From: Vulcanimicrobiales bacterium
GTDB taxonomy: Bacteria > Vulcanimicrobiota > Vulcanimicrobiia > Vulcanimicrobiales > Vulcanimicrobiaceae
DNA length: 64,000 nucleotides
Direction: 5' to 3'
Assembly (NCBI GenBank): GCA_038215615.1
Contig: JBBQQR010000004.1
Coordinates: 64,001 to 128,000, forward strand
The stretch's first letter is position 1. Each line of letters begins with the position of its first letter. The position numbers were made by a program, and so were the translations under genes. Positions 50,805 to 54,420 of this stretch are shown here, piece after piece. The notes beneath the pieces were generated by a model that was given only the letters and a program-made list of their open reading frames with translations, had not been told where the DNA came from and did no database searches.

Positions 50805-51881
50805 TCACTGCGCCGAGAGCGGTAGCCCGCCTCGATCCAATGGAATGGTGATGAGCAACTGCGTCACTTCGCTGTAATTGCGCACGCCCGAGGCGACGCG
50901 ATTGGACTTCAGGTAATTATTGTACATCCGCCAGGAAAAGCGGGAGAAATCAATGTTGACGAAGCGCGCGTTGCGTTGGCGCAGAGCTTCGAAATCTTGC
51001 CAGACTTCGGGCGCGAACATCTTGTGCGGATACTTTTGCAGCGGGGGCAGATACAAGAATACTTCGAGCCAGCCCGAGTACTGCGCAACGGTGTCGGAAT
51101 CGCGCATGCAGGTCAGCGCCGCGATGTAATTGGCTTCGTCCTCGCGATTGTAGCCGGCGACGTGACTCCATTCATGCGCTTGTGAAAACGGGCGCTCAAA
51201 CCACAAGAGATCGGGTGCGAGCTGAGTCTCGAGCGTGAACGGATTGATGAAGCCACTGGTGCCGTTCTTGTCCATGAAAAATCCGGCCAGCGTCGGTTTG
51301 GCTGCACCCACCTCGGGCGTCCAGCGATCGCCCAGCCGTTGCACCACCGGCAGCCATGCGTTGCGAAGGAGTTCGAACGCCAGCGCTTCACCGCGCGGGG
51401 CGTTATCGTTGAGCGCGTGCGCCGGGCGCGCGAGCCGGTTGAGTTCGGCAATGGCCCGGCCGCGCAGGGCGTCAACGTTGCCCGCCGTTAAGCGTGAACG
51501 GTCGTAGGCGACGCGACTCTGCAGCGGCGCGCGGTCGTAACCCCAGCCCCATCCGCCATAAAACCAGAGCGCATACATTCCCGCGACTCCGGCAATCCCG
51601 AAAAGCATGCGCAGCATCGGCACACCGAAGCGTCCGCGCCGCATGCGTTCGATGTTGCGCCATATTTTGACGATCACCACGACCGCGCCGGCCGCGATCA
51701 CCACGTCGCCGAGCGAAAACGGAAGCGCCGGCGTGAATGATCCCCAAAAGTTCTCCCACTTGGGATACCAGCCGTTGCTGAACGCGCTTTCGACCCACGC
51801 CGGCGACGGATGCCAGAGCGCGGCAAAGAGTCCCGCTACGATCAGCAGCGCGTCGGCGAAAAGTTGTACGCGGAGTCTTAG
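50805..51881 (-). CDS. DUF3810-like membrane zinc-peptidase-motif protein (no canonical start at the conserved N-terminus)
   Basis: [14 protein letters not shown]...[15 protein letters not shown] and AHEWSH..G..REDEANY motifs; frame open to 51881 but first GTG at 51704. Confidence 0.8.
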
Positions 51882-52267
51882 CGTTTGCTAAATTGGAAGC
51901 GCTTGCGGGCGCGTTTGCGGCCGTACTTCTTCGACTCTTTTTCGCGATCGTCGCGCGTCAAGAGGCCGGCTTTGCGCAAAATTTCGCGCAGTGATTCATC
52001 CATTTGCACCAGCGCGCGGGCGATGCCGTGCCGCAGCGCGCCGGCTTGGCCGGACGTGCCGCCGCCCTCGACCTTGACGTCGATGTTGAAGCGCGTCAGG
52101 CTTTGCGTGGCTTCGAGCGGCTGCTTCACGATTTGCTGCAGCGTCTGGCGAGTAAAATATTCTTCGAGCGGGCGTTTGTTGACGGTGATCTTGCCTTCGC
52201 CCAGCGCGAGTCTCACGCGCGCGACGGAACGTTTACGCCGTCCAGTCCCTAGGAAGTTATCGTTCAA
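51878..52267 (-). CDS. rpsI: 30S ribosomal protein S9
   Basis: [19 protein letters not shown] and [15 protein letters not shown] C-terminus. Confidence 0.98.
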
Positions 52268-52689
52268 GGCAGCTCCTGCGGTTTTTGCGCTTCGTGCGAA
52301 TGCGTCGCACCGGTATACACTTTTAAACGGCCTAGGCGGACGTCGCGCAATCTATTGGTGGGCAGCATGCCGCGCACCGCGCGTTCGATCAAGCGTTCCG
52401 GATGTTTGTCCATCAGGTCGCGCGCGGTCTGCAGTTTCAGGCCGCCGGGATAACCGCTGTGGCGGTAATACACTTTTTGGTCCCACTTGTTGCCGCCCAG
52501 CTCGACCTTCTCGGCGTTGAGCACGATCACGAAATCGCCGTCATCGATGTGCGGCGTCCAGGTCGGCTTGTGTTTGCCCGCAAGGACGCGCGAAATACGC
52601 ACGGCGAGAGTGCCGAGACGCTGGCCCGCGGCGTCGACGATGTACCAATCGTGCTTCGTCTCCGCGGTCTTCTGCTGGTACGTGCGCAT
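52264..52689 (-). CDS. rplM: 50S ribosomal protein L13
   Basis: [27 protein letters not shown] and AVRGMLP motifs. Confidence 0.97.
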
Positions 52690-52823
52690 GGTCTTCCTTA
52701 TAAGCGTGGGCAACCGACCTACTATACGCGGAGCCCGCCGCACCCGTCAAGCATGATTAAGGCCACGTCAGACTTTCGCATAGCCAAAAGGCGGCCGCCT
52801 GCCTCCATGAAAAAGAGATTAGA

Positions 52824-53654
52824 ATGAAGCATCGGATCGTCGGTGGTATAGCCGCTGCCTTTTTTGCCTGTTCGGCCCTGGCCATGGCCGTCGACAAGCC
52901 GGCCCCCAAGGGGCCTCCCATCGGGTCGATCTGCGACGAGTCCCTGAGGTCGATTGCCAATACCACCCACGCCCGGGCGACGCCCTGCGTCGTGACGCGC
53001 GGTCACATGGTCATCGAGACGATGTACTATCAGAATGCCTCGCGCGAAGGCGGAACGGCCCTGGCGGCCTACCCCGAGGCCACCTTCCGCGTGGGGGTCA
53101 GTCCGCGCCTCGAGCTGTTCGTGGACGCGCCCTCCGACATCGCCAAATCCGGAACTCATGGCGATGGCATCTTCTATTTCACCCACCCGGGCGTCGGTCT
53201 GAAAGCCTTGCTTTCAAGCAGCAGCACCTTCGCTTCGAGCCTCTCGCTCGAGACCCGGCCTCAGCTGCACGCGCTCGCCCACATGAGCCTGCTGCCGATG
53301 GCGGATGCCACGCTGACCGCTTCGTGGATGCCGCGCCGTTCAAACGTGATTATCACCGGGCAAGCGGGCGCATTCTGGTTCCAGCAGCGCGGAATGGGTC
53401 ACGAGCAAAAAATGGCCGCGACGTTTGCGCTCGGGGTCACCGCGCCGATCATGCGCAAGACGTGGCTCACGCTGCAACTGCGGAGTTTTTCGATAGCCGC
53501 ATTACATTCGTCGGCGCAAAGTTCGGGGACGCTAAGTCTGCAGCATGAAATCGGCCGTAACGTGTTGGCGAATGTGCAGCTCGGCACGGCTTTTAACGCC
53601 GCCAGGCATTCCAAGGCGCATTATCTCGGCCTCGGTTTCACCATCCGGCGCTAA
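52824..53654 (+). CDS. secreted/outer-membrane beta-barrel-like protein
   Basis: Signal peptide; alternating beta-strand pattern ending YLGLGFTIRR. Confidence 0.6.
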   Translation: MKHRIVGGIAAAFFACSALAMAVDKPAPKGPPIGSICDESLRSIANTTHARATPCVVTRGHMVIETMYYQNASREGGTALAAYPEATFRVGVSPRLELFVDAPSDIAKSGTHGDGIFYFTHPGVGLKALLSSSSTFASSLSLETRPQLHALAHMSLLPMADATLTASWMPRRSNVIITGQAGAFWFQQRGMGHEQKMAATFALGVTAPIMRKTWLTLQLRSFSIAALHSSAQSSGTLSLQHEIGRNVLANVQLGTAFNAARHSKAHYLGLGFTIRR

Positions 53655-54420
53655 TCGGCGGCTCTCCGAACGAGTCGAACCCGTCCGCGTAACGCACGCC
53701 CGCTAAATACAGACCTTGAGGCGGCGCTGTCATGCCCGTCGCGGAACGATCGAGCGACGCCAGCGCCGGCGCAATGCCGGCCGGATCGCGCTTTCCGGTT
53801 CCACACTCAACCAGCGTTCCAACGATGTTGCGGGCCATGCGGTGCAAATATCCGTCGGCGCGAATTTCAATGCGCAGCAAATCACCGTTGCGGCGAATAT
53901 CGATCGCGCGAATCGTTCGCAGCGTCGGACCGCTCTCGGGGAGCATGCCGCAAAACGAGCGAAAATCGTGCTCGCCGATCAGCGGCGCCGCAGCCGCCTT
54001 CATCGCTGCGACGTCGAGCGGCGGCCAGACGTGACACACATGGCGCGCGTACAGCGGCGAGCGCTCGCGCCGGTTTAGAATAATGTAGACGTACGTGCGC
54101 TCCAGCGCCGAAAAACGCGCGGAGAAGCCGGCCGGCGCTATGCCGGCATCGCGTATGGAAAGATCGGGGGGCAATTCGGTATTCGCTGCGAGCGTCAAGC
54201 GCTCGAACGGAAACGACGCCGCGGTTCTTAGCGAAACAACCTGTCCGGTCGCATGAACGCCCGTGTCAGTGCGGCCCGCCCCCGTGACTTTCACGGTGTT
54301 TGCAAAGAGGGTTGAAAAAACTCGCTCGAGTTCGCCCGCGATCGTGCGCAGCTCGGGTTGAAATTGGAAGCCGGAAAAAGCAGAGCCGTCGTACTCGACG
54401 ACGGCTCTGATAGTCGTTAG
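53638..54420 (-). CDS. truA: tRNA pseudouridine(38-40) synthase (apparent non-canonical start)
   Basis: VEYDGSAFSGFQ, AGRTDTGVHATGQ, GEHDFRSF, MARNIVG and TAPPQGLYL motifs. Confidence 0.95.
   Translation of the reverse strand, partial: LTTIRAVVEYDGSAFSGFQFQPELRTIAGELERVFSTLFANTVKVTGAGRTDTGVHATGQVVSLRTAASFPFERLTLAANTELPPDLSIRDAGIAPAGFSARFSALERTYVYIILNRRERSPLYARHVCHVWPPLDVAAMKAAAAPLIGEHDFRSFCGMLPESGPTLRTIRAIDIRRNGDLLRIEIRADGYLHRMARNIVGTLVECGTGKRDPAGIAPALASLDRSATGMTAPPQGLYLAGVRYADGFDSFGEPPISAGW

Follow-up and report, generated by a model that had tools for sequence, protein, structure and literature searches.

Translational coupling by termination–reinitiation has been described at gene overlaps of the −4 (ATGA) and −1 (TGATG) kind (Huber et al., 2019, PMC6728339; reviewed in PMC12548453), with canonical start codons only in the accessible parts of these sources, to which our statements about the literature refer throughout. 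Non-canonical starts are known from single genes controlled by initiation factor 3 (IF3), such as infC, which opens at AUU, AUC or AUA (overview in PMC5499595), from Streptomyces sigR, which starts at GTC (PMC5472188), and from four sites in Staphylococcus aureus, among them cvfC1 (AUU) and ccpN and citZ (AUA) (PMC13009471). Here we consider a 64 000 nt stretch of DNA from a Vulcanimicrobiales bacterium (GenBank assembly GCA_038215615.1, contig JBBQQR010000004.1, positions 64 001–128 000 of the forward strand; hereafter the window), in which a gene of the DUF3810 family (PF12725) lies directly behind rpsI and has no canonical start (ATG, GTG or TTG) ahead of its conserved N-terminal segment. 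Judging from comparative sequence data, we think it likely that this gene is made by termination–reinitiation at a very weak codon lying at the rpsI stop.

All features of the locus lie on the minus strand. The rpsI gene (51878..52267; PF00380 match), whose uS9 product ends in QFSKR, is itself joined to rplM through a TTGA overlap and terminates at CGC TAA, the stop occupying 51880–51878. The downstream frame reads TAG CAA ACG CTA AGA CTC CGC from 51890 to 51870, followed by GTA CAA, and its CTA (51881–51879) overlaps the rpsI stop at −4 in a CTAA junction (51878..51881). The same-strand geometry is that of an ordinary −4 overlap, with an overlapping codon that is not canonical. An upstream canonical start is impossible because the in-frame TAG (51888..51890) closes the frame three codons before the CTA, and the first ATG, GTG or TTG is the GTG of codon 60 (51702..51704), which leaves 59 codons (51705..51881) from CTA to GTG in a gene of 358 codons plus stop (50805..51881). 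On the CTAA junction, the in-frame TAG and the first canonical codon the preliminary description of the locus was accurate, but it left unnamed the one-mismatch codons of the frame, namely ACG directly before the CTA (51882..51884), drawn from the Lys-Arg end of uS9, and CTG CTG ATC at codons 12–14 (51840..51848), all of which are rival starts. No Shine–Dalgarno (SD) sequence precedes the CTA, so that the strong SD of infC and sigR is missing here; a conserved non-canonical codon at what is apparently the true N-terminus is shared with those genes.

The codons that a start at the GTG would skip behave like the rest of the gene. Pooled over six pairwise comparisons with close relatives, the ratio of non-synonymous to synonymous differences (pN/pS) is 0.133 for codons 2–59 and 0.137 for codons 60–340, and the variable columns number 11, 5 and 30 at codon positions one, two and three. 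The Pfam DUF3810 profile matches the CTA frame at residues 34–344 over profile positions 1–311 with 192.7 bits (cut-off 28), compared with 163.8 bits and profile positions 28–311 only from the GTG start. In an alignment of 58 DUF3810 sequences P25, W29, N36, G37, W42 and D59 are invariant, and AlphaFold2, run on this alignment, predicts helices at residues 2–22 and 27–47 with a predicted local distance difference test score (pLDDT) above 90, the first of them (pLDDT 92–97) being hydrophobic and a predicted membrane helix. These comparisons establish codons 2–59, at the level of sequence, as conserved coding sequence without a canonical start, and all the comparative evidence supports their translation, much as the preliminary description had proposed when it recognized a membrane helix and family motifs in the segment.

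A contrary reading is that the gene has lost its start, and is either a young pseudogene or made only as the 299-aa form from the GTG at 51704. Such a short form would suit most database entries of the cluster, 11 of the 15 listed being 291–303 aa long, yet both versions are contradicted by the pN/pS of the skipped codons, which equals that of the gene body. The gene was moreover found in 138 of 150 genomes of the family searched (a tally that includes unpublished genomes), most of the 120 homologues listed cover more than 90% (91–100%) of the long form, and smc, pth and prfA lack a start in the same way, with core motifs in their skipped parts. We consider the loss of the start to be extremely improbable. 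A wrong base call was also considered and rejected: the same CTAA junction is present in six other assembled genomes (L002, L003, L031, L033, L035 and L037), and a contig of run X1 spanning 51500–51932 has zero differences, X1 possibly being the source sample and thus not independent. The single run carrying an RNA label is probably DNA. Both a recent pseudogene and a miscalled base had been raised in the preliminary description as ways in which its proposal might fail. As a separate observation, the database entries for DUF3810 (cluster members P0002–P0031) and Pth of this genus appear to be N-terminally truncated, with 299 compared with 358 aa for DUF3810 and 166–174 compared with about 189 aa for Pth, the short Pth lacking the GLGNPG motif.

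The position of the start was approached through 36 rpsI–DUF3810 junctions from published genomes; the unpublished L026–L028 and L471 were left out, duplicates (L032, L034, L091, L463 and L483) were dropped where stated, L036 and L301 are truncated, and further DUF3810 junctions were located in 23 more genomes outside the 36 read. Two layouts alternate. In one, a hairpin with a U-rich tail stands just after the rpsI stop (18 loci: L005–L007, L009, L010, L013–L016, L018, L019, L021–L025, L030 and L182), the DUF3810 frame runs through it, and a canonical start precedes the first helix in 14 of 18 cases and is lacking in four. In the other there is no hairpin, 17 of 18 junctions are without a canonical start, and 16 open in the −4 phase (CTAA, TTAA or ATAA). 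The window has the second layout, a consensus scan of the interval from rpsI to the DUF3810 gene having found nothing that resembles a terminator. The association of terminator and start has a Fisher P of 2×10⁻⁵, a value overstated in that kin are not independent and seven of the 16 belong to one clade; the terminator-less NTA layout (N, any base) is nevertheless spread over six genera (g1, g4, g8, g16, g21 and g71). The hairpin of the 18 relatives resembles an intrinsic terminator and lies inside the N-terminal frame, where it is translated as ...RGSF...; translating through it could act as coupled anti-termination. The two layouts may be alternative means by which the output of a minor gene is held down downstream of a very strong ribosomal-protein operon.

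Of the 36 junctions, 21 have no canonical start before the first helix, and 18 of these 21 open in the −4 phase. Counted as genus-by-spacer combinations, 11 of 14 do so (nominal P=0.0007 against 1/3), and in genus g71 four genomes hold the phase over spacers of 17, 23, 26 and 38 nt; the overlapping codon among relatives is CTA, TTA, GTA or ATA. Since an internal start would prefer no phase, the keeping of the −4 phase weighs for a start at the overlap. Relatives called with canonical starts (P0013, P0014 and L004) begin 12 residues before a conserved Ile, and the CTA stands 13 before that Ile.

An ordinary one-mismatch start, with the CTAA incidental, would have to lie either at the ACG, which would still be coupled to the stop, or at the CTG or ATC of codons 12–14, reached de novo or by scanning, and NTA would then never serve as a start except as ATA. 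In favour of such a start, the ACG occurs in all seven genomes of the clade and each of them has a CTG at one or other of codons 12 and 13; a close orthologue (P0006, of the G102 type) has an NCBI record that begins at the position matching codon 12, and CTG, ATH (H, A, C or T), GTC and ACG are evidently used at frame-0 and frame-2 junctions (prfA, tmk, leuB, queA and lysS); in E. coli, CUG and AUH reach about 1–2% of AUG (10.1101/063800). However, ACG is replaced by GCG in L008, L011 and L029, codon 12 is CTG, CTA or CTC and codon 13 CTG or CTA across the clade, so that neither is conserved as a start, and an internal CTG predicts neither the phase preference nor the 12 residues held before the Ile by the relatives with canonical starts. 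A one-mismatch codon is also absent at ten pth, truA and hflX loci described below. We regard the one-mismatch reading as unlikely, with ACG and CTG/ATC each a little less likely still, and to an equal degree, as the start of DUF3810, and we lean towards CTA as its start codon. The start at CTA over the stop put forward in the preliminary description thus stands as the best-supported choice, by phase and by spacing to the Ile, short of proof of the exact codon, ACG and the CTG of codons 12 and 13 being present nearby.

The −4 phase would equally follow, with no need of an odd start codon, from a −1 shift at the rpsI stop that produced a uS9–DUF3810 fusion (and likewise an L25–Pth fusion and others), possibly processed later, and no re-initiation would then be involved. 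Programmed −1 frameshifting gained no support, no slippery site being found at the rpsI/DUF3810 junction. P-site re-pairing in the −1 frame is available at two of 19 NTA junctions compared with 22 of 366 canonical overlaps, and here CGC to ACG cannot re-pair. Among orthologues the canonical start is a separate one, in some cases after an in-frame stop (L004, L005, L010 and L016), the C-terminal Lys-Arg tail of uS9 is a functional end, and N-terminal fusion would be expected to block the membrane-helix and Pth N-termini. A frameshift fusion is very improbable. We give equally little credence to a special decoding of NTA as NTG, whether by a lysidine-modified initiator tRNA, by a second initiator tRNA or by A-to-I editing of the overlap. 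In its favour, no single class is commoner than NTA, which parallels NTG, and tilS is present; against this, ARAGORN finds three CAT tRNAs, which from their features we take to be the initiator, elongator Met and Ile2, the initiator having the usual three G–C anticodon pairs, and no TAT tRNA. It is the stop codon that imposes the middle T and the A, and NTA therefore needs no special reader; editing would destroy the stop at TAG overlaps, and CTG, ATH, GTC and ACG starts occur as well.

The DUF3810 junction is one of many in this genome (G000). A self-trained dicodon gene model gave 2077 genes and 1350 same-strand junctions, and 481 of the latter (36%) are canonical −4 or −1 overlaps (366 NTGA and 115 TRATG; R, purine). 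When candidates were defined by a coding-like segment before a first canonical codon lying at least 36 nt past the stop, 49 of the 1350 qualified (25 in the −4 frame, 10 in frame 0 and 14 in frame 2), an approximate figure in that the threshold misses cases; 38 of the 49 are without a canonical codon back to the in-frame stop. The −4 candidates comprise six CTGA, three ATA and 16 CTA, GTA or TTA. Among the 49 genes are smc (ATAA), pth (GTAA), truA and hflX (CTAA), mutS2 (GTAG), prfA (TAA-CTG), tmk, leuB, queA and lysS. NCBIfam profiles matched 17 of 20 chosen proteins, in every case from a point upstream of the first canonical codon; in SMC, for example, profile position 1 falls at residue 6, next to the junction codon at residue 5, and the first canonical codon is codon 60. 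The truA gene (53638..54420, minus strand), which likewise opens at CTAA in the window (54420–54417; CTA 54420–54418), has profile position 3 at residue 4 and its first canonical codon at codon 43, and is probably the other member of the pair when the preliminary description called the rpsI junction a second independent case. The rule is wider than CTAA and seems to take in GTA, TTA, ATA, CTG and others. At lysS (window 57459–57384, minus strand) there is also no canonical start: downstream of the greA TAG the frame continues AGC ACG GAC, the NCBIfam match runs from residue 14, the first canonical codon is the TTG of codon 25, and the ACG is kept in genome G132.

In G132, for which 2.0 of about 2.5 Mb were read, 37 of the 49 candidates have a match and the extension could be aligned in 36 of these. 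Between the two genomes only two of 154 canonical −4 overlaps turned non-canonical, with 36 changing their tetramer (among ATGA, GTGA and TTGA or otherwise), and eight of 20 non-canonical −4 overlaps changed, none of them to a canonical codon. Canonical junctions thus stay canonical and non-canonical ones stay non-canonical, which argues that the two kinds are not interchangeable; the weakness of the start may be conserved or, failing that, may be tolerated in a fixed group of genes only.

The same pattern recurs at other genes across the family, here called f1. A junction with no canonical start and NT[AG] at −4 is found at 28 of 44 truA, 18 of 30 pth and 15 of 30 hflX loci; the first base of the overlap varies freely, and where the junction is rearranged or the stop is TGA, ATG, GTG or TTG stands at the homologous place. 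At ten loci (four pth GTAA, truA CTAA and GTAG, and four hflX GTAG) no one-mismatch codon occurs from 9 nt before the stop to the conserved core, and these are the best evidence that GTA and CTA may themselves serve. Canonical starts are found at eight of 30 pth loci in f1 and at one of seven in families f2 and f3, where CTG or ACG mostly lies nearby, compared with 20 of 21 pth and ten of ten truA loci in other classes, the class contrast resting on these two genes. Beyond CTA the codons that seem to be in use are GTA, TTA, ATA and CTG and, at other spacings, GTC, ATC, ATT and ACG. The infC start (G000:C16, about 5730, minus strand; L038 and L308–L336) is ATA in f1, where it sits behind an SD, ATC in f2 and ATT in f3 and most other classes; in the infC copy of G075 (L336) the frame is broken close to the start, which may reflect a sequence error.

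Several observations weigh against a general use of NTA codons as starts. The figure of 49 candidates is a raw count, and the 25 in the −4 frame overstate NTA starts, since some of them clearly start several codons ahead of the stop (GTC is the probable codon for coaE and a glycosyltransferase, ATC for purA). NTAA places A first in the next codon, so that the frame is common to an ACG or ATC overlapping at −1 (truA, purA and others), a one-mismatch codon is present at each of the DUF3810 NTA junctions, codons 2–11 of DUF3810 bear few substitutions (five synonymous and four non-synonymous, pooled), and the spacer phase test for pth gave only 7 of 11 (P=0.04). A four-base SD match precedes just three of the 25 −4 candidates (12%), compared with 9% of 214 controls and 26% of the 366 canonical overlaps. 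In E. coli, codons outside AUG, GUG, UUG, AUH and CUG gave 0.1–1% of AUG (10.1101/063800); CUA is not named in the accessible part of that source and falls among the 57 weak codons by exclusion. Excess IF3 lowers SD-less re-initiation (PMC2268962). Finally, IF3, IF1, the initiator tRNA, Fmt, ribosome recycling factor (RRF), release factor 3 (RF3), RsmH, RsmD and KsgA are present and look ordinary.

With these points in mind, we still hold the comparative case to be strong that these genes have no canonical start and begin at the upstream stop, and infer from it initiation at CUA itself. Our working hypothesis is that the DUF3810 gene is intact and is made through translational coupling to rpsI. 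After termination at the rpsI TAA, the ribosome would remain on the mRNA, move a couple of bases and re-initiate with formylmethionyl-tRNA at a non-canonical codon located there; this codon is most likely the CTA, whose overlap would have the geometry of ATGA, GTGA, TTGA and CTGA with A for G in the third position. The poor codon would admit only a small share of the heavy rplM–rpsI ribosome traffic into DUF3810, and the weak start would at this locus replace the intrinsic terminator that may damp the gene in other genera; low efficiency and a low-expression purpose would go together in such a scheme. There is no SD enrichment before the NTA codons among the 25 −4 candidates, the GTA of pth, with AGGAG 7 nt upstream, being an exception. 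The missing SD at the CTA and the near-control SD rate suggest that the start is probably positioned through ribosomes delivered from the upstream gene. In this genome a four-base SD match is seen at only 20–30% of canonical starts, and the anti-SD tail of the 16S rRNA, not assembled in G000, is normal in five relatives.

Compared with the coupling described by Huber et al. (2019), the junctions studied here are alike in that the start overlaps the stop by 4 nt in an operon context, and differ in that CTA, GTA, TTA or ATA stands over TAA or TAG, mostly without an SD; unlike the codons of canonical overlaps, CTA, GTA and TTA are two mismatches away from AUG. With infC, sigR and the S. aureus genes they would share a conserved weak start holding output low, and in this genome infC itself has its ATA behind an SD and coaE probably a GTC behind GGAGG. 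Those systems, however, number a handful per genome and initiate de novo behind a strong SD, whereas here there would be several dozen, tied to upstream stops and including CUA, GUA and UUA. The apparent GTC start of coaE (G000:C2, about 100695–100710, plus strand; L142), which resembles that of Streptomyces sigR, lies 7 nt after the GGAGG and four codons before the upstream stop. In E. coli, random re-initiation after stops follows inactivation of RRF (as summarized in PMC2268962), but RRF is present here and the state is a natural one. We found no description of NTA starts over TAA or TAG in bacteria, in literature searches that covered subscription journals poorly, nor, with the same poor coverage, of non-canonical starts in Eremiobacterota/Vulcanimicrobiota.

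A loss or oddity of the initiation machinery was considered as a cause and rejected: infC, infA, fmt, frr, prfC, tilS, rsmH, rsmD and ksgA are over the cut-off, with rsmI partial at a contig end. An IF3 alignment of 30 genomes revealed no class-specific loss at the residues that we take to be critical. ARAGORN reported 47 tRNAs in G000, including tRNA-Sec, and no tmRNA, which may be unassembled or split. The 16S rRNA offers a lead in bridge B3 of helix 44, where we number positions from 1409 and 1491–1493 as we presume them to lie. For the 16S type most often seen in the sample, this numbering is consistent with the pairs given in PMC3082907. In f1, C1414, C1415 and U1416 face A1482, G1484 and G1485 in 13 of the 14 genomes read on both strands, and the 5′ strand of helix 44 of G000 agrees with this type; all 13 published f3 genomes have C1416–G1484. 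Among 113 arbitrary metagenome 16S sequences, G1484 occurs six times, C1415–G1485 five times and U1416 with G1484 never. In E. coli, C1484G doubles CUG initiation (114 compared with 58 units), and C1484A, which is lethal, can be suppressed by T1414C and by G1416T (PMC3082907). The f1 16S rRNA thus resembles relaxed-start E. coli mutants in carrying G1484, but an unpaired E. coli mutant differs from a compensated natural helix, and one f11 genome has the f3-type helix, with G1484, and yet f11 starts pth and truA canonically. We consider it doubtful that bridge B3 (G1484 with U1416) is the structural cause of relaxed starts. The 16S gene of E. coli NZ_CP123592.1 (L484) has an atypical GG at 1484–1485, possibly a sequencing error, and 16S copies unlike the family type in L472 (G303), G040:C35 and G209:C70 are probably from contaminating contigs.

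The DUF3810 protein matches its family profile in full length and has an invariant HEWxH; H236, E237, H240, E247 and E249 are invariant, with HEWSH at 236–240 and a REEA-like motif. From the HEWSH motif it is a putative membrane-anchored zinc metallopeptidase. Foldseek gave no structural match for DUF3810 at E≤0.001, and the structural neighbours found with VIA-align, M1 zinc aminopeptidases among them, are weak (best Z 6.6, range Z 5–6.6, root mean square deviation 4.5–5.8). A search with PF12725 did not find DUF3810 in seven f2/f3 genomes. A sigma-70-like promoter, by consensus match only, is predicted for the rplM–rpsI–DUF3810 unit at 52721..52750 on the minus strand. The start of rplM is most likely the ATG at 52689 (minus strand), downstream of this promoter-like site, the list of open reading frames having given the GTG at 52743.

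A 2025 review (PMC12548453) counts the choice of start codon during re-initiation among the questions still to be answered. Natural junctions at which an essential gene would be makeable only from a two-mismatch codon at the stop turn this into a directly testable question; they separate re-initiation by 30S or 70S ribosomes from de novo initiation, and relatives that have the same gene with ATG, TTG, CTG or NTA provide matched natural controls. The class Vulcanimicrobiia appears to share the trait that, in each genome, several dozen coupled genes or more open at NTA, CTG, ATH, GTC or ACG beside the upstream stop. We hold the balance to be even on the further proposal that the two-mismatch codons CUA, GUA and UUA are true physiological re-initiation codons and make up a conserved tier of low expression to which dozens of housekeeping genes belong (smc, pth, truA, hflX and mutS2) and which would be evolutionarily interchangeable with an intrinsic terminator. 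If this is true, bacteria use more start codons than annotation tables provide for, and the N-termini of proteins across a widespread soil class would be systematically truncated in databases, starts of the CTA, GTA and TTA type being missed by gene finders while they may keep their genes weakly expressed.

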